Origin: Escherichia phage ST2
Reading direction: 5' to 3' (one strand)
DNA length: 64,000 nt
Sequence record: OM982647
Below the pieces are notes generated by a model. It was not told where the DNA came from and did not search any database. It worked only from the letters and a program-made list of their open reading frames with translations. Of this stretch, positions 936 through 59,742 are shown in pieces (position 1 is the stretch's first letter; each line of letters opens with the position of its first letter). The position numbers and the translations under genes were made by a program.

Positions 936-1799
936 ATGTATATTCAAACTCCAAAACAATTGATTGACGTTGGCGAAATTGGTAACGCTTCTACAGGCGA
1001 TATCCTTTTTGACGGCGGTGTTAAAATAAACAATGATATAAATGCTATTTACAATGCGTTTGGTGACCAACGAAAAATGGCAACTGCTAATGGGACAGGA
1101 CCAAATGGACAAATAATCCATGCCACTGGATACTACCAAAAAGGAGGCCCTACCGATTATTTCACCCCTGTTCCAGTAGGAAGTAGACACGACATAGATG
1201 CTTCTACCGGTGGTGTTATTGTTACTGTTGCTAGAGGTGAACTCGGCGATTCCGTGGAATTTATAAATTCAAACGGATCAATTTCGGTAAATAACCCATT
1301 AAGTATCCAAGCATTAGATTCTATTAAAGGTGTTGCAGGTAATTTAGTTATAACCACACCTTATACTAAAGTTACTCTTCGTTGTATTTCTTCTGGTGCA
1401 GGCGGTTCAATATGGGATTATTCTACAGAAAGTATGTTTAGTCATACCGAAATTCCTGTAGACGGGACATGGAATATTATTTCAGACTATGTCAATATTC
1501 CTCTATTTTATAAAACTGAATATAATGCTGCTAAACTTTTGGTTACATGCCAATCTGCCAACGGCAGAAAAATTAAATCATGTGAAATAAATATTCTAAT
1601 AGATACAATTAATTCAAGAGTTATTTCAACCGAATACGCAGTGATGCGCGTTGGTAATGATAACGAAGAAGATGAAATTGCGAATATTAGTTTTTCGATA
1701 ATTAACAATTTTGCCACTATGACAGTTTCTTCACATATAAATGGTCTTCGAGTGGCAGCTAAAGTTATTTCAACTCAGAAAATTAGGGTCGCTCAATAA
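936..1799 (+). CDS. 9: baseplate wedge / long-tail-fibre attachment protein gp9
   Basis: 287 aa, colinear with T4 gp9 (288 aa): MYIQTPKQLIDVGEIGNASTGDILFDGG..., ...EYAVMRVGN..EEDEIANI. Confidence 0.95.
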   Translation: MYIQTPKQLIDVGEIGNASTGDILFDGGVKINNDINAIYNAFGDQRKMATANGTGPNGQIIHATGYYQKGGPTDYFTPVPVGSRHDIDASTGGVIVTVARGELGDSVEFINSNGSISVNNPLSIQALDSIKGVAGNLVITTPYTKVTLRCISSGAGGSIWDYSTESMFSHTEIPVDGTWNIISDYVNIPLFYKTEYNAAKLLVTCQSANGRKIKSCEINILIDTINSRVISTEYAVMRVGNDNEEDEIANISFSIINNFATMTVSSHINGLRVAAKVISTQKIRVAQ

Positions 1800-3613
1800 T
1801 GAAACAAAATATTAAAATTGGGAACGTCGTTGATGACGGACAAGGCGATTACCTTCGTCGTGGTGGTGCAAAAATTAATGAAAACTTTGATGAGTTGTAT
1901 TATGAATTAGGCGATGGCGAAGTTCCGTATTCCGCTGGTGCCTGGAAAACATACCATTCTTCAGATGGACTTAATTTAGCTGCTGAATGGGGTAAATCAT
2001 ACGCAATTGATACTTCAACAGGGCGTGTTTCTATAAATTTACCTAAAGGAACAGTGGAAGATTATAATAAAGTAATTAGAGCCCGTGATGTATTCGCCAC
2101 ATGGAATATTAACCCTGTAACATTAATTGCTGCCAGCGGTGATACTATTAAAGGTTCTTCTAGCCCAGTAGAAATCAATGTGCAGTTTTCAGACTTAGAA
2201 TTAGTTTACTGTTCTCCTGGGCGTTGGGAATACGTTAAAAATAAACAAATAGACAAAATTACTAGTTCTGATATTAGTAGTGTAGCTCGTAAAGAATTTT
2301 TAGTCGAAGTTCAAGGTCAAACTGATTTTCTTGATGTATTTGGGCCTGTTTCTTATAATGTGAATAATATCCGTGTAAAACATCGTGGTAACGAATTATA
2401 CTACGGTGACGTGTTCAGTGACAATAGTGACTTTGGTTCTCCAGGAGCTAATCCTGGTGAAATCGTTGCATTAGATGGTAAAAACATCCGTTTAAGACAA
2501 CCATGTAATATCGGCGACACCGTACAAATTGAAACCTTTTTAGATGGGATTACACAATTACGTAGTTCTTATTCTCGCCGCCAAATACGTATTTTAGATT
2601 CGAAATTAACAACCCGTCCTTCCTTAGAAGGAAGTGTATATGTCGCGGATTTGTCAACTTTGAAATCTATTCCTTTTTCGGCATTTGGAGTTAATCCTTC
2701 AGAACCGGTCAATACCAATTCTTTAGAAGTTCGTTTTAACGGTATTCTTCAAGAATTAGCTGGTACTGTTGGTTTACCTATGTTCAGGTGTGAAGGTGCT
2801 GATGCAGAAACTTCTACCGAGTGTTCAGCTTTAGGTGGGACTTGGGTTACATCTAACACCGATTATTCTATTGAATATGATGATAACGATGCAACTATTG
2901 CACGTGCTTTAGTCTTTGACCGTAAGTTTGAAGACCAAGACATTATTGATATTACATGGTTTAATAACGATTTAGGCACTTTATTAAGTATCGATGACAT
3001 TTTAGATACAACTGATGAAAGGTATGTCGCACAAGGTGCAACCGTAAATGTGACCGGCGATGTGGCTTTGACAGATTTCAATAATATCGGATGGCCTAAT
3101 GTAGAATCTGTTCCTGCATATAGCAGGGAATTCTCGTCTATTGCAAATATTTTTAACACCATTTACCCTGTCGGTACTATTTACGAAAATGCAGTGAACC
3201 CTAATAACCCAGCCACGTATTTAGGATTTGGCTCTTGGAAATTATGGGGACAAGGAAAAGTATTAGTTGGATGGAACGACGATATTAGCGATCCTAATTT
3301 TGCATTAAATAATAACGACCTTGATTCTAGCGGGAATCCTACACATACCGCCGGTGGAACAGTCGGAACAACGTCTAACACACTAACTAATTCTGATTTA
3401 CCTCCTACTCAAACTGACGAGAAAGTTCTTATTTCCGATGAGAACGGTACAATTATTATTGGTGGTTGTCAATACGACCCTGATGCAGAAGGTCCTATAT
3501 ACACCAAATACCGTGAAGGCCACGCCACAACGAATAGTACACACATACCGCCTCAAGCCGTAAATAATATTCAACCGTCAATTACCGTATATCGTTGGGT
3601 AAGGATTGCATAA
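1799..3613 (+). CDS. 10: baseplate wedge protein gp10
   Basis: 604 aa (T4 gp10 is 602 aa); position between 9 and 11; start overlaps gene 9 stop (TAATG). Confidence 0.93.
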
Positions 3614-16706: not shown

Positions 16707-17131
16707 TGTATCTTATCCCTGAATCTTATGAATTGGTACTCGAAAATGTCGAAGCACTTATTCCTGAAGCACAGGGCCGAATCGATGCATTGTCTTCTGC
16801 TCTCGATATTGACGATATAAATACTATTATCGAGAACATGCTTGAAACTGAAACGGATTTAGCTGTTGCAATGGCTTCCATTATTAATGAAGAACAGTTA
16901 AATGAGTTTATCGTTAAACATGTTTCTTCTCGTGGTGAAGTCACTCGCACTAAAGACCGTAAAACTCGTGAACGTAACGCGTTCCAAACAACTGGTCTTT
17001 CTAAAGCAAAACGTAGACAAATCGCTCGTAAGGTCGTTAAAGCTAAAAAAGCTAACCCTTCAGGCCAAGTTAAAGGCTTGCGTAAGCGTAAAAAGGCTCT
17101 TAAACGTCGTAAAGCATTAGGATTAAGCTAA
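16706..17131 (+). CDS. 68: prohead core protein gp68
   Basis: 141 aa (T4 gp68 is 141 aa); basic C-terminus; overlapping stop/start with 67 and 21. Confidence 0.85.
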
Positions 17132-17772
17132 TGAATAAACCCGAGTTACTTATTGAAACTTGGGGTCAACCCGGTGAGATTATTGATGGCGTTCCAATGT
17201 TGGAATCTCATGATGGAAAAGATTCTGGCTTAAAACCAGGGCTTTATATAGAAGGTATTTTTCTTCAGGCAGAGGTTGTTAACCGAAATAAACGTTTATA
17301 TCCTAAACGCGTTTTGGAAAAAGCAGTAAGTGACTATATTAAAGAACAAGTCGCAACCAAACAAGCCCTTGGAGAATTAAACCATCCACCTCGTGCAAAT
17401 GTTGACCCTATGCAAGCCGCTATCATTATTGAAGATATGTGGTGGAAAGGAAACGATGTATATGGACGTGCTAGAATTATTGAAGGCGACCATGGTCCCG
17501 GCGATAAATTAGCTGCTAATATACGAGCTGGTTGGATTCCAGGTGTTTCCTCTCGTGGTCTTGGTTCTTTAACCGACACCAATAAAGGGTACCGTATCGT
17601 GAACGAAGGATTTAAATTAACCGTCGGCGTAGATGCCGTATGGGGACCTTCTGCTCCAGATGCTTGGGTTACTCCTAAACAAATATCAGAATCAGAAAAT
17701 TCGGTGGAAACCACCAAAAACAGTGCTGATGAAGCATTTAAAGCTCTCGCAGAGAGTTTAAAAGCATTATAA
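17131..17772 (+). CDS. 21: prohead core scaffold protein and protease gp21
   Basis: 213 aa (T4 gp21 is 212 aa); position upstream of 22 and 23. Confidence 0.93.
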   Translation: MNKPELLIETWGQPGEIIDGVPMLESHDGKDSGLKPGLYIEGIFLQAEVVNRNKRLYPKRVLEKAVSDYIKEQVATKQALGELNHPPRANVDPMQAAIIIEDMWWKGNDVYGRARIIEGDHGPGDKLAANIRAGWIPGVSSRGLGSLTDTNKGYRIVNEGFKLTVGVDAVWGPSAPDAWVTPKQISESENSVETTKNSADEAFKALAESLKAL

Positions 17773-17805: not shown

Positions 17806-18618
17806 ATGATCAAAGAACAACTTTTGAAAGAAGCTCAGAACATCGAGACTTCAGTTGCTCTTAATAGTGTTTTCGAATCAGTAGAACTGTCTCCGGACGT
17901 TAAAGCTAATTTCAGCACTGTATTCGAAGCCACCGTTAAGCAGGAAGCAGTCAAACTGGCTGAATCTCATATCAAAGCCATCGCCGAAAAGGCCGAAGAA
18001 GAAGTTGAAAAGGCCAAAGAAGATGCTGAAGAGAAAGCTGATAAAAAATTGGCTGAACAAGCTTCTAAATTCCTAGACCATCTTGCAAAAGAATGGCTCG
18101 CAGAAAACCAAATCGCAGTTGATAAAGGCATTAAAGCTGATTTGTTCGAATCCATGCTTGGTGGTCTGAAAGAACTGTTTGTTGAACATAACGTTGTTGT
18201 TCCAGAAGAATCTGTAGATGTTGTAGCAGAAATGGAAGAAGAGCTGGCCGAACATAAAGAAGAAACCGCTCGTTTGTTCGAAGAAGTTACCAAACGTGAT
18301 GCATATATCAATTACGTTCAGCGTGAAACCGCTATTAATGAAAGCGTAAAAGACCTGACTGAATCTCAGAAAGAAAAAGTTATTGGCCTGGTTGAAGGTA
18401 TGGATTATTCTGACGCATTTGGTACTAAGTTAACTGCTATTGTAGAAATGGTTAAAGGTTCTACTAAAGAAGAAGCCGCTATTACCGAAAGTATAAATAC
18501 AGTTGACAATGACGCTGCCGGTCTTAATTTTGTTGCCGAAGCAGTTGACACTACCACAACTCAGGTAGAACAGAATTCTAATGTAAGTTTATATGCGAAA
18601 GTCGCATCTCGTTTCTAA
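17806..18618 (+). CDS. 22: major prohead scaffolding core protein gp22
   Basis: 270 aa, E/K/A-rich helical protein as T4 gp22 (269 aa). Confidence 0.92.
   Translation: MIKEQLLKEAQNIETSVALNSVFESVELSPDVKANFSTVFEATVKQEAVKLAESHIKAIAEKAEEEVEKAKEDAEEKADKKLAEQASKFLDHLAKEWLAENQIAVDKGIKADLFESMLGGLKELFVEHNVVVPEESVDVVAEMEEELAEHKEETARLFEEVTKRDAYINYVQRETAINESVKDLTESQKEKVIGLVEGMDYSDAFGTKLTAIVEMVKGSTKEEAAITESINTVDNDAAGLNFVAEAVDTTTTQVEQNSNVSLYAKVASRF
18492..18499 (+). promoter_or_regulatory. T4-type late promoter (TATAAATA) embedded in the 3' end of gene 22, candidate promoter for gene 23
   Basis: Exact TATAAATA inside gene 22 coding sequence, 137 nt upstream of gene 23 ATG; no closer TATAAATA exists. Confidence 0.5.
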
Positions 18619-18635: not shown

Positions 18636-20204
18636 ATGACTACTATCAAAACTAAAGCTCAGCTCGTAGACAAATGGAAAGAATTGCTGGAAGGTGAAGG
18701 CCTGCCGGAAATCGCTAATAGCAAGCAGGCTATTATCGCTAAAATCTTCGAAAACCAGGAAAAAGATTTCGAAGTATCCCCTGAATATAAAGACGAGAAA
18801 ATCGCTCAGGCATTTGGTTCTTTCTTGACCGAAGCTGAAATTGGTGGTGACCACGGTTATAATGCTCAGAACATCGCAGCAGGTCAAACCTCTGGTGCAG
18901 TAACCCAAATTGGGCCGGCAGTTATGGGTATGGTTCGTCGTGCTATTCCTAATCTGATCGCTTTTGATATTTGTGGTGTTCAGCCTATGAACAGCCCTAC
19001 CGGTCAGGTATTTGCTCTCCGTGCAGTATATGGTAAAGACCCTATCGCTGCTGGCGCTAAAGAAGCTTTCCATCCGATGTATGCCCCAGACGCGATGTTC
19101 TCTGGACAGGGTGCTGCTAAGAAATTCCCAGCTCTGGCTGCCGACACTACTACTGTTGTAGGTGATATCTATACTCACTTCTTCCAAGAAACTGGTACTG
19201 TATATCTGCAAGCTTCTGCTGTCGTAACACTTGATTCTGGTGCAACTGATGCAGCTAAATTAGATGCTGAAATTAAGAAACAAATGGAAGCTGGTGCACT
19301 GGTAGAAATCGCTGAAGGTATGGCTACTTCTATCGCTGAACTCCAGGAAGGTTTCAACGGTTCTACCGACAACCCGTGGAACGAAATGGGCTTCCGTATC
19401 GACAAACAAGTTATTGAAGCTAAATCTCGTCAGCTGAAAGCAGCTTACTCCATCGAATTGGCACAAGACCTCCGTGCAGTACACGGTATGGATGCTGATG
19501 CTGAACTGAGCGGTATTCTTGCTACTGAAATTATGCTAGAAATCAACCGTGAAGTTGTTGATTGGATTAACTACTCGGCACAGGTTGGTAAATCTGGTAT
19601 GACCCTGACTCCGGGTTCTAAAGCTGGCGTATTTGACTTCCAGGACCCGATTGATATCCGTGGTGCTCGTTGGGCCGGTGAAAGCTTTAAATCTCTGTTG
19701 TTCCAGATTGATAAAGAAGCAGTTGAAATTGCTCGTCAAACCGGTCGTGGTGAAGGTAACTTCATTATCGCTTCCCGTAACGTAGTTAACGTACTGGCTT
19801 CAGTTGACACTGGTATTTCTTACGCTGCACAGGGTCTGGCTTCTGGTTTTAATACCGACACTACTAAGTCTGTATTTGCCGGTGTACTTGGTGGTAAATA
19901 CCGCGTATACATCGACCAGTATGCTAAACAGGATTACTTCACCGTTGGTTACAAAGGCGCTAACGAAATGGATGCAGGTATTTACTATGCTCCTTACGTT
20001 GCACTTACCCCACTGCGTGGTTCCGATCCTAAGAACTTCCAGCCGGTAATGGGCTTTAAAACTCGTTACGGTATCGGTGTTAACCCGTTTGCTGAAAGTT
20101 CCCTGCAGGCTCCAGGTGCTCGCATCCAGTCCGGTATGCCGTCTATCCTGAACAGCCTTGGTAAGAACGCTTACTTTAGACGCGTCTACGTTAAAGGAAT
20201 TTAA
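18636..20204 (+). CDS. 23: major capsid protein gp23
   Basis: 522 aa (T4 gp23 is 521 aa); MTTIKTKAQLVDKWKELLEGEGLPEIANSKQAII... N-terminal propeptide and body as in T4. Confidence 0.98.
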   Translation: MTTIKTKAQLVDKWKELLEGEGLPEIANSKQAIIAKIFENQEKDFEVSPEYKDEKIAQAFGSFLTEAEIGGDHGYNAQNIAAGQTSGAVTQIGPAVMGMVRRAIPNLIAFDICGVQPMNSPTGQVFALRAVYGKDPIAAGAKEAFHPMYAPDAMFSGQGAAKKFPALAADTTTVVGDIYTHFFQETGTVYLQASAVVTLDSGATDAAKLDAEIKKQMEAGALVEIAEGMATSIAELQEGFNGSTDNPWNEMGFRIDKQVIEAKSRQLKAAYSIELAQDLRAVHGMDADAELSGILATEIMLEINREVVDWINYSAQVGKSGMTLTPGSKAGVFDFQDPIDIRGARWAGESFKSLLFQIDKEAVEIARQTGRGEGNFIIASRNVVNVLASVDTGISYAAQGLASGFNTDTTKSVFAGVLGGKYRVYIDQYAKQDYFTVGYKGANEMDAGIYYAPYVALTPLRGSDPKNFQPVMGFKTRYGIGVNPFAESSLQAPGARIQSGMPSILNSLGKNAYFRRVYVKGI

Positions 20205-20233
20205 TGCTTTAACGTTAAAATACATAACCTTAT

Positions 20234-20251
20234 GGGAGACTTCGGTCTCCC
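20234..20251 (+). terminator. intrinsic terminator GGGAGAC-UUCG-GUCUCCC + U5 after gene 23
   Basis: Perfect 7-bp stem with UUCG tetraloop followed by CAUUUUUGG, 30 nt after gene 23 stop; same 18-mer as at 878, 42737 and 57467. Confidence 0.75.
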
Positions 20252-20261
20252 ATTTTTGGTT

Positions 20262-20531
20262 TTATTTCTGTGCAATTTCGATGTAAGTTTTCAAAATATT
20301 TTGCCAATTAGGCATACCTTCTTGGACATATGCTGGAGAACCGTCTTTGTTTTTGAATGATGCAAGTTTATCAGTGGCCCAATAACCTTTAGCTCGAGCT
20401 TCAGAATCAACTTTCATCCATACTTTGTTGAAGGCATTACCATTAACTTTTGCACCATATTTTTCTACTAACTTAACTGCTTCAGCTTCCAGAACTTTTA
20501 AAGTATCTCTTAAGAAACGTGCTTTAGTCAT
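20262..20531 (-). CDS. hypothetical early protein (89 aa) in the 23-24 intergenic slot
   Basis: ATG start with GAGGAG Shine-Dalgarno, own early-type promoter upstream; no family recognised by eye; occupies the position of segD in T4. Confidence 0.55.
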   Translation of the reverse strand: MTKARFLRDTLKVLEAEAVKLVEKYGAKVNGNAFNKVWMKVDSEARAKGYWATDKLASFKNKDGSPAYVQEGMPNWQNILKTYIEIAQK

Positions 20532-20560
20532 TTTGTTTACTCCTCTGTAGTTGATAAGTC

Positions 20561-20591
20561 TATAGTATCACATACCAAATACGTTGTAAAC
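20561..20591 (-). promoter_or_regulatory. T4 early-type promoter (GTTTAC -35, 17-bp spacer, TGnnATACTAT extended -10) for the 89-aa ORF
   Basis: Minus-strand GTTTAC at 20586-20591 and -10 region at ~20561-20568; same architecture as other early promoters in the window. Confidence 0.6.
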
Positions 20592-20597
20592 AATCTT

Positions 20598-20605
20598 TAT
20601 AAATA
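20598..20605 (+). promoter_or_regulatory. T4-type late promoter (TATAAATA) for gene 24
   Basis: Exact TATAAATA 28 nt upstream of gene 24 ATG. Confidence 0.7.
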
Positions 20606-20632: not shown

Positions 20633-21916
20633 ATGAGTAAAATCCAAAAATTATTGCGTGAATCTACAACGTCTACTAGCAACTCAATCGGTCGCCCAAA
20701 TCTCGTTGCTTTGACTCGCGCTACGACTAAATTAATATATTCTGACATTGTAGCAACACAAAGAACTAATCAACCTGTTGCTGCTTTTTATGGTATCAAA
20801 TATCTTAACCCAGATAACGAATTCACATTTAAAACTGGTGCTACTTATGCGGGTGAAGTTGGATATGTAGACCGAGAAAAAATTACTGAGCTCACAGAAG
20901 AATCAAAAGTCACACTAAATAAAGGCGATTTTTTCAAATATAATAATATCGTCTATAAAGTGTTAGAAGATACACCATTTGCAGATATTCAAGAAAGTGA
21001 TCTAGAATTAGCTCTTCAGATTGCAGTCGTTCATTTAAAGGTACGGTTATTTTCAGATGCAGCGGTAACAAGCAAATTTGAAAGCTCTGGTAGCGAAATT
21101 TCTGATGCAAGATTCCAGATTAATAAATGGCAAACTTCAGTCAAATCTCGTAAACTTAAAACCGGCCTCACTGTTGAATTAGCGCAAGATTTGGAAGCGA
21201 ATGGATTTGATGCCCCTAACTTCTTAGAAGATTTGCTTGCTACTGAAATGGCTGATGAAATTAATAAAGATATTCTTCAGTCTTTAATTACTGTATCGAA
21301 ACGTTATAAAGTTACTGGAATTACTGACACTGGATTTATTGACTTGAGCTATGCATCCGCTCCAGAAGCAGGTCGTTCATTATATCGAATGGTGTGTGAA
21401 ATGGTATCACACATTCAAAAAGAGACAACTTATACTGCAACGTTTTGTGTAGCCTCAGCCCGTGCAGCTGCTATTCTTGCTGCTTCCGGTTGGTTAAAAC
21501 ATAAGCCAGAAGATGACAAGTATCTTTCACAAAATGCTTATGGATTCTTGGCAAATGGATTACCTCTTTACTGCGATACCAACAGCCCGTTAGATTATGT
21601 TATTGTGGGTGTTGTAGAAAATATCGGCGAAAAAGAAATTGTAGGGTCCATCTTTTATGCTCCATACACTGAAGGAGTAGATTTAGATGACCCGGAACAT
21701 GTTGGTGCATTTAAAGTTGTAGTTGATCCAGAAAGCTTGCAACCGTCTATCGGATTATTGGTTAGATATGCTTTATCAGCAAATCCTTACACAGTAGCAA
21801 AAGACGAAAAAGAAGCGAGAATAATTGATGGTGGGGACATGGATAAAATGGCAGGACGTTCAGACTTGTCTGTTTTACTCGGTGTTAAATTGCCTAAAAT
21901 TATTATAGATGAATAA
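20633..21916 (+). CDS. 24: capsid vertex protein gp24
   Basis: 427 aa, same length as T4 gp24; gp23 paralogue fold signature (…ELAQDLEA…). Confidence 0.95.
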   Translation: MSKIQKLLRESTTSTSNSIGRPNLVALTRATTKLIYSDIVATQRTNQPVAAFYGIKYLNPDNEFTFKTGATYAGEVGYVDREKITELTEESKVTLNKGDFFKYNNIVYKVLEDTPFADIQESDLELALQIAVVHLKVRLFSDAAVTSKFESSGSEISDARFQINKWQTSVKSRKLKTGLTVELAQDLEANGFDAPNFLEDLLATEMADEINKDILQSLITVSKRYKVTGITDTGFIDLSYASAPEAGRSLYRMVCEMVSHIQKETTYTATFCVASARAAAILAASGWLKHKPEDDKYLSQNAYGFLANGLPLYCDTNSPLDYVIVGVVENIGEKEIVGSIFYAPYTEGVDLDDPEHVGAFKVVVDPESLQPSIGLLVRYALSANPYTVAKDEKEARIIDGGDMDKMAGRSDLSVLLGVKLPKIIIDE

Positions 21917-21947: not shown

Positions 21948-22946
21948 TTATGATACTAATTCAATCCATGCAGGACGCAGAACATCTTGCACCATTCTAA
22001 TTAATTCTTTCTTAACAAGACTCGGGTCATCGGATGATGTTAATACAATACCTTCACGAGAAGTTTCTTCTAGAATATCTTTAACAGTCAATCCAGTCAC
22101 TTTACCGAAATCTTTTGGCGTTACAGCCCCAATCTTAGAAATCACATTATTAACACGATTTAATGTAACATAACAAGCTAGAACATCAAGCAAGTTTTTG
22201 TCAATTTCGGTTAATGGAACCTGAGTTTTAATAGGCTTATCAGACTTTTTCTTTTCACTGAATTTAGAGTTCTTGCACTTAATAGCTACACGAGTACCGT
22301 TTGGCAGCCATTTAGGGAAACAGGGCTTCAGAACATAACCTTCCGCAGTATTATTACCAATAACATTAGCATCAAATACACAATTATTTGCTTCGACAAG
22401 GTCTTCTGACGCAGTAGCATTATAAGCGGCTAAGACAGAATCAAGGTCGTTTGGAATCATGATAAGAGAATCAAATGTTCCACGTCCAAGCATTGGTGCC
22501 ATTTTAAAACCGAATTCATTACAGAAATCTTGCATTTCGTAATCGGTCAAATACGTATTATCACCACTTTCTGTATTGATAATGATATCGAACACATAAA
22601 AATCTTTTTCACCATAGTCAACACCTTTCTGGATTCCACCACCAGCGAATTCACCGAATACTTGATATGATACGGCTCGAGCTGCGTGCATTAATTCCTG
22701 AACGGCTTTAATAGCTTTATCATACTTTTTGAGTACTATTTCATAGCCATAAAAATCTTCTGCTGGAAGAATAGGGCCTGTGCGCTTGGCGCATGTGACG
22801 TTGTCACGTTCAATTATTAACGAGAAGTTAGTCCCATGGATTTTCTCACGTGCTACCCAAACACCAGTAGTCAAACCATTAGTGTAGAGTTTTTCAATAA
22901 ACTTAGAGTTGTAGTGGTTTTCAAGACTGCTGTATTTCTTAAACAT
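21948..22946 (-). CDS. rnlB: RNA ligase 2 (Rnl2)
   Basis: 332 aa; nucleotidyltransferase motif I K-I-H-G-T-N (KIHGTNFSL) near N-terminus; T4 Rnl2 is 334 aa; position 24-rnlB-hoc. Confidence 0.93.
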
Positions 22947-59160: not shown

Positions 59161-59495
59161 AATAAGAAATCTAACGTATTAGTTTTTTCACCACGAGCAA
59201 CTGATGGGCGAAGCATGTTTTCGTCAATTGCTTCGCTTGTAATTTTTTCAACAATTCCTGTAGGAATAAATTTAGCAAATTGTGTTTCTGGAATAGAATT
59301 TTCTTCCAAGAAAGCAGTTGTTGCTTCTAAATAAGACATACCAAATTTTTCAACCATGGATTCGATAATGAATCCGTTTTCTTGTCGGTCAAGCAATTTA
59401 GCGATATCATCTTTATCGTGTTTTACTGCTAATTCTTGTTCAGATAAACCGGCCTCATCAACCGGTTTAATATCACTTAGTGAAAACTGTGTCAT
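59157..59495 (-). CDS. 33: gp33 late-transcription co-activator
   Basis: 112 aa, same length as T4 gp33; overlaps gene 59 start by 4 nt. Confidence 0.9.
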   Translation of the reverse strand: MTQFSLSDIKPVDEAGLSEQELAVKHDKDDIAKLLDRQENGFIIESMVEKFGMSYLEATTAFLEENSIPETQFAKFIPTGIVEKITSEAIDENMLRPSVARGEKTNTLDFLL

Positions 59496-59742
59496 AAAGC
59501 TCGACTACCTCTTCGTTTTCAGCTTCAAATTGGTCACGAGCGTCTTTATGATAAAGAGCTAACAAACGATTAAACATTTTTCCATCGACACCAAGCTCTT
59601 CTTTAGCACGAGTACGAATGTCTTTAATCAGTTCGTTATAACCAGAAATTTTAAGTTTGTTATCGGAAGCTTCCTTGACTAGTTTAGCCAGTTCTTCACC
59701 ATGCACATCTTGATTAAATTCAACTGCTTCTTTCTTAGCCAT
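59473..59742 (-). CDS. dsbA: DsbA double-stranded DNA-binding late transcription enhancer
   Basis: ORF-track frame 59473..59760; start set at ATG 59742 (MAKKEAVEFNQDVHGEELAKLVKEASDNKLKISGYNELIKDIR…), 89 aa as T4 DsbA. Confidence 0.88.
   Translation of the reverse strand: MAKKEAVEFNQDVHGEELAKLVKEASDNKLKISGYNELIKDIRTRAKEELGVDGKMFNRLLALYHKDARDQFEAENEEVVELYDTVFTK

Follow-up and report, generated by a model that had tools for sequence, protein, structure and literature searches.

A conserved, probably early-expressed antisense accessory gene with an orphan predicted fold in the gene 23-24 interval of T-even phages

The minus-strand open reading frame (ORF) that lies between capsid genes 23 and 24 of Escherichia phage ST2 is, on comparative evidence, a real gene under selection: the protein, its position and its upstream promoter are conserved among T-even phages, and no relatives are known beyond the family to which it belongs. 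It is almost certainly an independent accessory gene and not a remnant of the homing endonuclease SegD, which occupies the same interval in T4. The overall explanation that we favour, with modest confidence, is that of a non-essential T-even accessory gene, expressed early, whose product would bind an anionic target in host takeover or counter-defence.

The window analysed here is a stretch of 64,000 nucleotides of the phage ST2 record (OM982647) and comes from a Mosigvirus, one of the RB69-like T-even phages; over the 1.2 kb that surround the ORF it is 99.5% identical with Escherichia phage ECO111 5-P and 97-98% identical with many other Mosigvirus genomes. An earlier note, made from the letters of the window, had described an antisense ORF set between the terminator of gene 23 and the late promoter of gene 24 and equipped with a strong Shine-Dalgarno sequence; the coordinates, strand, ATG start and length proved exact, and the Shine-Dalgarno sequence was seen at its place (Table 1). 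The G+C content of the ORF, about 0.35, is ordinary for a T-even phage and gives no sign of recent foreign origin, and an Rfam scan of the gene 23-24 interval found nothing near any family threshold.

Table 1. Coordinates of the features in and around the gene 23-24 interval of the window, and of features in compared loci (L numbers)
Feature	Sequence	Position	Strand	Remark
Gene 21	window	17131-17772		local gene order
Gene 22	window	17806-18618		local gene order
Gene 23, major capsid protein	window	18636-20204	+	left flank of the slot
GC-rich hairpin, 9 bp, with T-run	window	20232-20253	+	directly 3' of gene 23; intrinsic terminator of gene 23
ORF, 89 aa, ATG start	window	20262-20531	minus	Mosigvirus-type allele of the PHROG 6003 family
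Shine-Dalgarno GAGGAG	window	20545-20540	minus	8 nt 5' of the ATG (20531-20529)
T4-early-type sigma-70 promoter	window	20562-20591	minus	GTTTACA (20591-20585), 17 nt, TG-n-TACTAT (-10 at 20567-20562)
Late promoter motif TATAAATA of gene 24	window	20598-20605	+	back-to-back with the early promoter of the ORF
Gene 24, capsid vertex protein	window	20633-21916	+	right flank of the slot
rnlB	window	21948-22946	minus	
Dhakavirus-type allele with SegD orthologue	L008 (LF82-5)	1958-2887		
Dhakavirus-type allele with SegD orthologue	L013 (PNJ-9)	1731-2660		
Tandem gp24 paralogues	L003	1335-3899		
Tandem gp24 paralogues	L004	1330-3894		
Tandem gp24 paralogues	L025	337-2901		
Tandem gp24 paralogues	L014			
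Tandem gp24 paralogues	L015			

The length of the ORF says little about its reality, as ORFs of 60-190 aa are common by chance on the antisense strands of the window and 89 codons are unremarkable in such an AT-rich sequence. The matter is settled by comparative data on conservation and selection. The protein was detected by tblastn in 187 phage records, with at least 80% of its length covered in 185 of these, and a more distant family member used as query retrieved 238 records. The match to PHROG 6003 takes in the whole protein (E 2.1e-45, residues 1-89 on profile positions 1-90 of 90). Pairwise Nei-Gojobori estimates of dN/dS lie at 0.08-0.15, both within and between allele groups, which is the mark of purifying selection, and across three genera the protein is conserved even though synonymous sites in the DNA have reached saturation. 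The chance of a fortuitous reading frame in an AT-rich intergenic region, which the abundance of random antisense ORFs might otherwise suggest, is negligible in the face of this conservation, the full-length PHROG match and the confident fold prediction described below. PHROG 6003, a family for which no function has been described, includes JS98 orf173, VR7ORF190c and the disrupted RB69ORF188c/189c, and its members occupy the same slot, on the same strand and at the same length, in Mosigvirus, Dhakavirus and Gaprivervirus. The ORF of the window differs from them in nothing and is a full member. Some 190-240 GenBank phage records already carry it as a 'hypothetical protein', and our search of the literature found no paper discussing either the ORF or PHROG 6003.

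The interval between genes 23 and 24 was surveyed across T4-like phages with a query that consisted of the interval and 400 bp from either neighbouring gene; the interval size was read from the stretch that the joined matches covered. Four states were found. The slot is empty, at about 83 bp with only the terminator and the late promoter, in most Tequatrovirus (e.g. OE5505) and in many other T4-like genera, those of Klebsiella and Salmonella included; it holds the ORF alone in Mosigvirus, Dhakavirus, Gaprivervirus and three metagenomic T4-like contigs; it holds the ORF and segD in tandem in LF82-5, PNJ-9, vB_EcoM_005 and IME341, where the arrangement was verified; and it holds segD alone in T4, Gelderlandvirus CGG4-1 and Marfavirus PhiKpNIH-6. 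SegD orthologues, at 52-61% identity, keep to this slot across genera, and segD of the LF82-5 type occurs at 90% identity or more in about 33 records. The insertion hotspot postulated in the earlier note is thus real, T4 does keep segD there on the same antisense strand, and the suggestion that the ORF might be an unrelated accessory gene at such a site agrees with an interval that is empty, or contains segD, or (in three genera) contains the ORF. A search for related loci with the family alignment recovered nine only, all from Dhakavirus or Gaprivervirus. When viral contigs were scanned with the protein of the window, 18 peptide patterns matched, none of which was confirmed by tblastn; close relatives are abundant among GenBank phages. 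On the right flank, two tandem paralogues of gp24, the vertex protein, are present in Dhakavirus, Gaprivervirus, CGG4-1, PhiKpNIH-6 and a 173-kb metagenomic phage; a single copy is present in the window and in T4.

The shared slot raises the question of whether the ORF descends from segD. The earlier note had entertained an endonuclease remnant reduced to its DNA-binding domain, and the ORF does resemble T4 segD in its intergenic slot, its antisense orientation and a promoter-like element placed back-to-back with the late promoter of gene 24. The proteins themselves are unrelated, with 89 against 223 aa and neither a nuclease nor a helix-turn-helix (HTH) domain in the shorter one. BLASTP of the ORF protein against T4 SegD returned a single alignment of 17 residues (E 0.022) to SegD residues 93-109, and so outside the C-terminal HTH at about 194-217, the region for which the note had proposed an alignment. 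The GIY-YIG models of Pfam (PF01541 / PF19835) gave no match at E <=1, and the HNH and HTH models none, when the protein of the window and 10 family members were scanned; in the same scan T4 SegD scored 27.8 bits against a GIY-YIG cut-off of 25 bits, and the LF82-5 SegD orthologue, at 20 bits, fell below the threshold. The ORF protein contains no Cys and no His, which leaves no place for the His/Asn/His motif of an HNH enzyme or its usual Cys/His zinc site, and the note's reading that neither nuclease motif is present was correct. The protein belongs to neither the Seg nor the Mob family.

Decisive on this point is the coexistence of the two genes. In the Mosigviruses LF82-5 and PNJ-9, an 88-aa family member and a 219-aa SegD orthologue (57% identity with T4 SegD) are separate, intact genes in tandem, the ORF first and segD 3 nt downstream. 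The same pairing is found in Dhakavirus IME341 (ORF 68900-69163, segD 69170-69838); in Dhakavirus IME08 only the segD match was seen. Because the ORF and an intact SegD orthologue stand side by side, and with a dN/dS of about 0.1 that is unlike that of a decaying remnant, descent of the ORF from the DNA-binding domain of a SegD-like GIY-YIG or HNH enzyme is extremely unlikely, in spite of the common slot, strand and promoter position.

The ORF has diverged quickly. Mosigvirus-type and Dhakavirus/Gaprivervirus-type alleles share 32-38% protein identity, against 65-84% for the flanking gp22, gp23, gp24 and RnlB of the same genomes, and by this comparison the ORF is a fast-evolving gene. The Mosigvirus-type class comprises the window and metagenomic relatives at 61-71% identity, and the Mosigviruses that bear segD carry the Dhakavirus-type allele of the ORF. 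LF82-5 is 98.9% identical with the window up to 20265 and 97.5% identical from 20540 on; the replaced patch, window 20266-20539, is exactly the coding sequence, for which a Dhakavirus-type allele and segD have been substituted. In the alignments this looks like cassette exchange between genera. It might be asked whether the ORF is bound to SegD mobility, as a resident cargo or target whose allele classes are swapped together with segD, for instance through allele-specific cleavage sensitivity or immunity. The exact fit of the LF82-5 patch between flanks that are nearly identical, the recurrence of the pair in Dhakavirus IME341 and the approximately 33 records of LF82-type segD would all accord with such a link, but mosaic boundaries may only mark where homology resumes, distant homologues occur without segD nearby, and phages with segD only (T4, CGG4-1, PhiKpNIH-6) exist alongside many with the ORF only. 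Since both kinds of phage exist, neither gene needs the other, and we regard a SegD-linked role as improbable.

The earlier note had also assigned the ORF an early promoter of its own. In a single sequence the match is not above chance (2 found, 2.8 expected in shuffles), and it is the conservation across lineages that supports the claim. The region from the start of gene 24 to the start of the downstream gene was aligned for nine lineages, in which the -35 element (G/A)T(T/G)TACA is conserved, the -10 element TGnTAnnAT is present in eight (CJ20 has CATAAT without the TG), and the 17-nt spacer between them is essentially unconserved. The complement of the late promoter, TATTTATA on the ORF strand, is kept in all nine, and GGAG stands at the Shine-Dalgarno position in 8/9. 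Conserved elements with a free spacer are the footprint of a working sigma-70 promoter, and the element has the sequence characters of a T4-type early promoter, namely a GTTTAC-type -35, a 17-nt spacer and a TGn-extended TAnnnT -10. From these features we infer that the ORF is probably transcribed early in infection.

This promoter accompanies all three occupied states of the slot, including segD in T4, CGG4-1 and PhiKpNIH-6, and no such promoter was found in the gene 23-24 interval of empty-slot phages. Upstream of segD in T4 stand TTTACA, 17 nt and TG-n-TATTAT (NC_000866 about 107253-107281, minus strand; L007 3754-3782), with 10/12 consensus positions, and this promoter-like element is positionally homologous to the promoter of the window ORF. 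A 2010 review of T4 mobile elements stated that a segD-specific promoter was not identifiable and guessed that transcript levels were vanishingly low (PMC2988022). The alignment suggests that a host-type promoter belongs to the slot and appears to drive whichever gene occupies it.

Downstream of the ORF stop codon, the minus-strand RNA folds into a hairpin of -19.1 kcal/mol (z -4.6, 20205-20275) that is followed by a poor U-tract; the hairpin at 20232-20253 is identical in JS98 and LF82-5. Early transcripts may read past it into gene 23 in antisense. The corresponding hairpin of Gaprivervirus CJ20 is scored as a terminator on either strand. It could be argued from this layout that the unit acts mainly as an early antisense ('anti-late') transcript into gene 23 and that the peptide is incidental: the promoter points into the capsid operon, the weak U-tract makes read-through plausible, and the promoter is conserved whichever gene comes next. 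The protein, however, is under strong purifying selection, its Shine-Dalgarno sequence is strong and conserved, its fold is predicted with confidence, its homologues occur in unrelated genomic contexts, and the promoter is absent from empty-slot phages, all of which makes a predominantly antisense function very unlikely.

The product is a basic protein of 10.1 kDa with a pI of 9.6 and a net charge of about +5.5, and the basic character is kept in all allele classes (pI 9.5-9.6). AlphaFold, run with an alignment of 8 sequences, gave a mean pLDDT of 91.6, with all five models at 86.7 or above and in agreement with the first model. The predicted fold consists of a helix (residues 3-25), a second helix (31-48), a beta-hairpin (52-60/66-70) and a C-terminal helix (76-88). 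Invariant or near-invariant positions are M1, K3, F6, L14, L21, N30-G31-N32, N35, A45, S57, G64 and Q70, with an invariant core G-N-x-x-N at the start of helix 2 that is extended to N-G-N-x-x-N in 9/10 members; the Asn and Gln residues among them amount to a polar cluster near the points where helix 2 begins and the hairpin ends. Profile search and structure prediction, both proposed in the earlier note, thus established membership of PHROG 6003 and a confident fold, but yielded no nuclease or HTH similarity.

Searches for relatives were extensive. Pfam and NCBIfam scans returned sub-threshold matches only, inconsistent from member to member (DUF4859, Ca_bind_SSO6904, EcoRI), and none of the PADLOC anti-phage defence models was matched. 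A word-indexed search of 5.8 billion proteins found only close relatives, and when 1.84 billion representatives were searched exhaustively with the profile, 7 hits came back. Phage proteins of the family account for 6 of them, namely a 41-aa fragment and five proteins of 84-90 aa. The remaining hit, P0013, carries Cyt-b5 domains in six tandem copies and was rejected: residues 40-70 were matched through summed repeats, a single repeat scoring 5.5 bits against the broader family HMM, and no homology with the cytochrome b5-like domain (PF00173) was found beyond a short hairpin motif. A profile search of PDB sequences found nothing below E 1, Foldseek against the PDB gave E values above 0.39 and no informative neighbour, and a structure search of BFVD returned one family member only. 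Winged-helix proteins were among the top Foldseek PDB matches and were set aside, with TM-scores <=0.26 and probabilities <=0.18. Taken together, the model and the searches describe a confidently predicted orphan fold with no sequence or structural relatives outside a tiny phage-only family. One 90-aa member, P0006 (L025 3001-3273), bears the JGI name 'NADPH-dependent curcumin reductase CurA', which is unsupported: it has no Pfam match and belongs to the phage family.

The earlier note had also considered homology to a characterised, non-mobile T4 protein, and here the answer was negative: the family HMM found nothing among 2,407 six-frame T4 segments, the best E being 0.77. Within the window, the only other match of the family HMM is to the DsbA orthologue (59473-59742, minus strand), the counterpart of the 89-aa dsDNA-binding protein DsbA of T4 (PF11126). 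The match has an E of 0.0026 summed over two stretches, and the two proteins have in common their length of 89 aa, a helical character and a short V-[ND]-G-x-x-F-N motif, so that a very distant paralogue of T4 DsbA, itself an enhancer of late transcription, might be envisaged as a DNA-binding transcription modulator. Each stretch alone, however, has an E of about 0.6, profile-profile comparison (hhalign) gives a probability of 2.2% over 21 columns, and no family member matches PF11126. DsbA is not a supported relative, and this kinship is very unlikely.

Beyond the T4-like phages, distant members (30-35% identity) lie in small-gene arrays of an rV5-like Acinetobacter phage and of a related metagenomic contig, whose array includes a T7 gp0.6-family gene. 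Another distant member, from a different type of phage, is located between a GpJ-type tail gene and replication genes and is preceded by a terminator and a TTGACG-17-TGnTATATT promoter. Distant homologues placed behind sigma-70-like promoters of their own form the pattern of a portable accessory gene, one that would be expressed by the host polymerase. Neither T4 nor any of the empty-slot phages has the ORF. In the RB69 reference (L002 3937-4177), +1 and -1 indels and clustered substitutions split the gene into ORF189c and ORF188c, and in phage mogra (L034 327-595) the loss of one base from an A5 run shifts its frame. These frameshifts are either natural knock-outs of viable phages or sequencing errors. 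By its distribution the gene is conserved but dispensable, with the patchy occurrence typical of accessory genes.

Small early accessory ORFs of T-even phages are host-takeover and counter-defence genes of the hyperplastic regions. The ORF is like them in its small size, its early-type sigma-70 promoter, its dispensability, its patchy occurrence and its rapid divergence, but stands alone inside the late capsid operon and not in a long array of early genes.

Our favoured explanation, an independent early accessory gene, leads to the following sequence of events. Unmodified host RNA polymerase would most likely transcribe the ORF early from GTTTACA-17-TGnTAnnAT, running antisense to the capsid operon and ending at or near the shared hairpin. 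The product would be a compact basic protein of 10 kDa, helix-helix-beta-hairpin-helix in outline, devoid of catalytic or metal-binding residues, and for this reason we infer that it acts by binding. Its most likely mode would be stoichiometric binding of an anionic target, which may be a nucleic acid, a nucleotide-like ligand or an acidic host protein; the basic charge is weak evidence for nucleic acid in particular. Such binding would serve host takeover or counter-defence. This last part, the host-directed binder, is tentative and is put forward with clearly less confidence than the accessory-gene explanation as a whole. A more ambitious version, in which PHROG 6003 would be a new-fold, phage-only effector of counter-defence or host takeover with two allele classes about 33% identical, exchanged as cassettes between T-even genera, one of them linked to segD, and in which the slot promoter would be the real promoter of T4 segD, is unlikely to hold in full.

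For the T-even phages, the ORF adds one more small, probably early gene that awaits characterisation to the accessory repertoire, a modest result of an ordinary kind. Modestly new are the description of the four-state slot, the allele-plus-segD cassette and the conserved promoter that also precedes segD. Comparison with the ORF clarifies the architecture of the SegD slot, and the conserved slot promoter might account for the expression of segD in T4, where this gene lies in antisense. As a single-gene early unit isolated in the late capsid operon, with a confidently predicted orphan fold, possible natural knock-outs (RB69, mogra), natural allele swaps and empty-slot relatives, the locus offers a clean test case.
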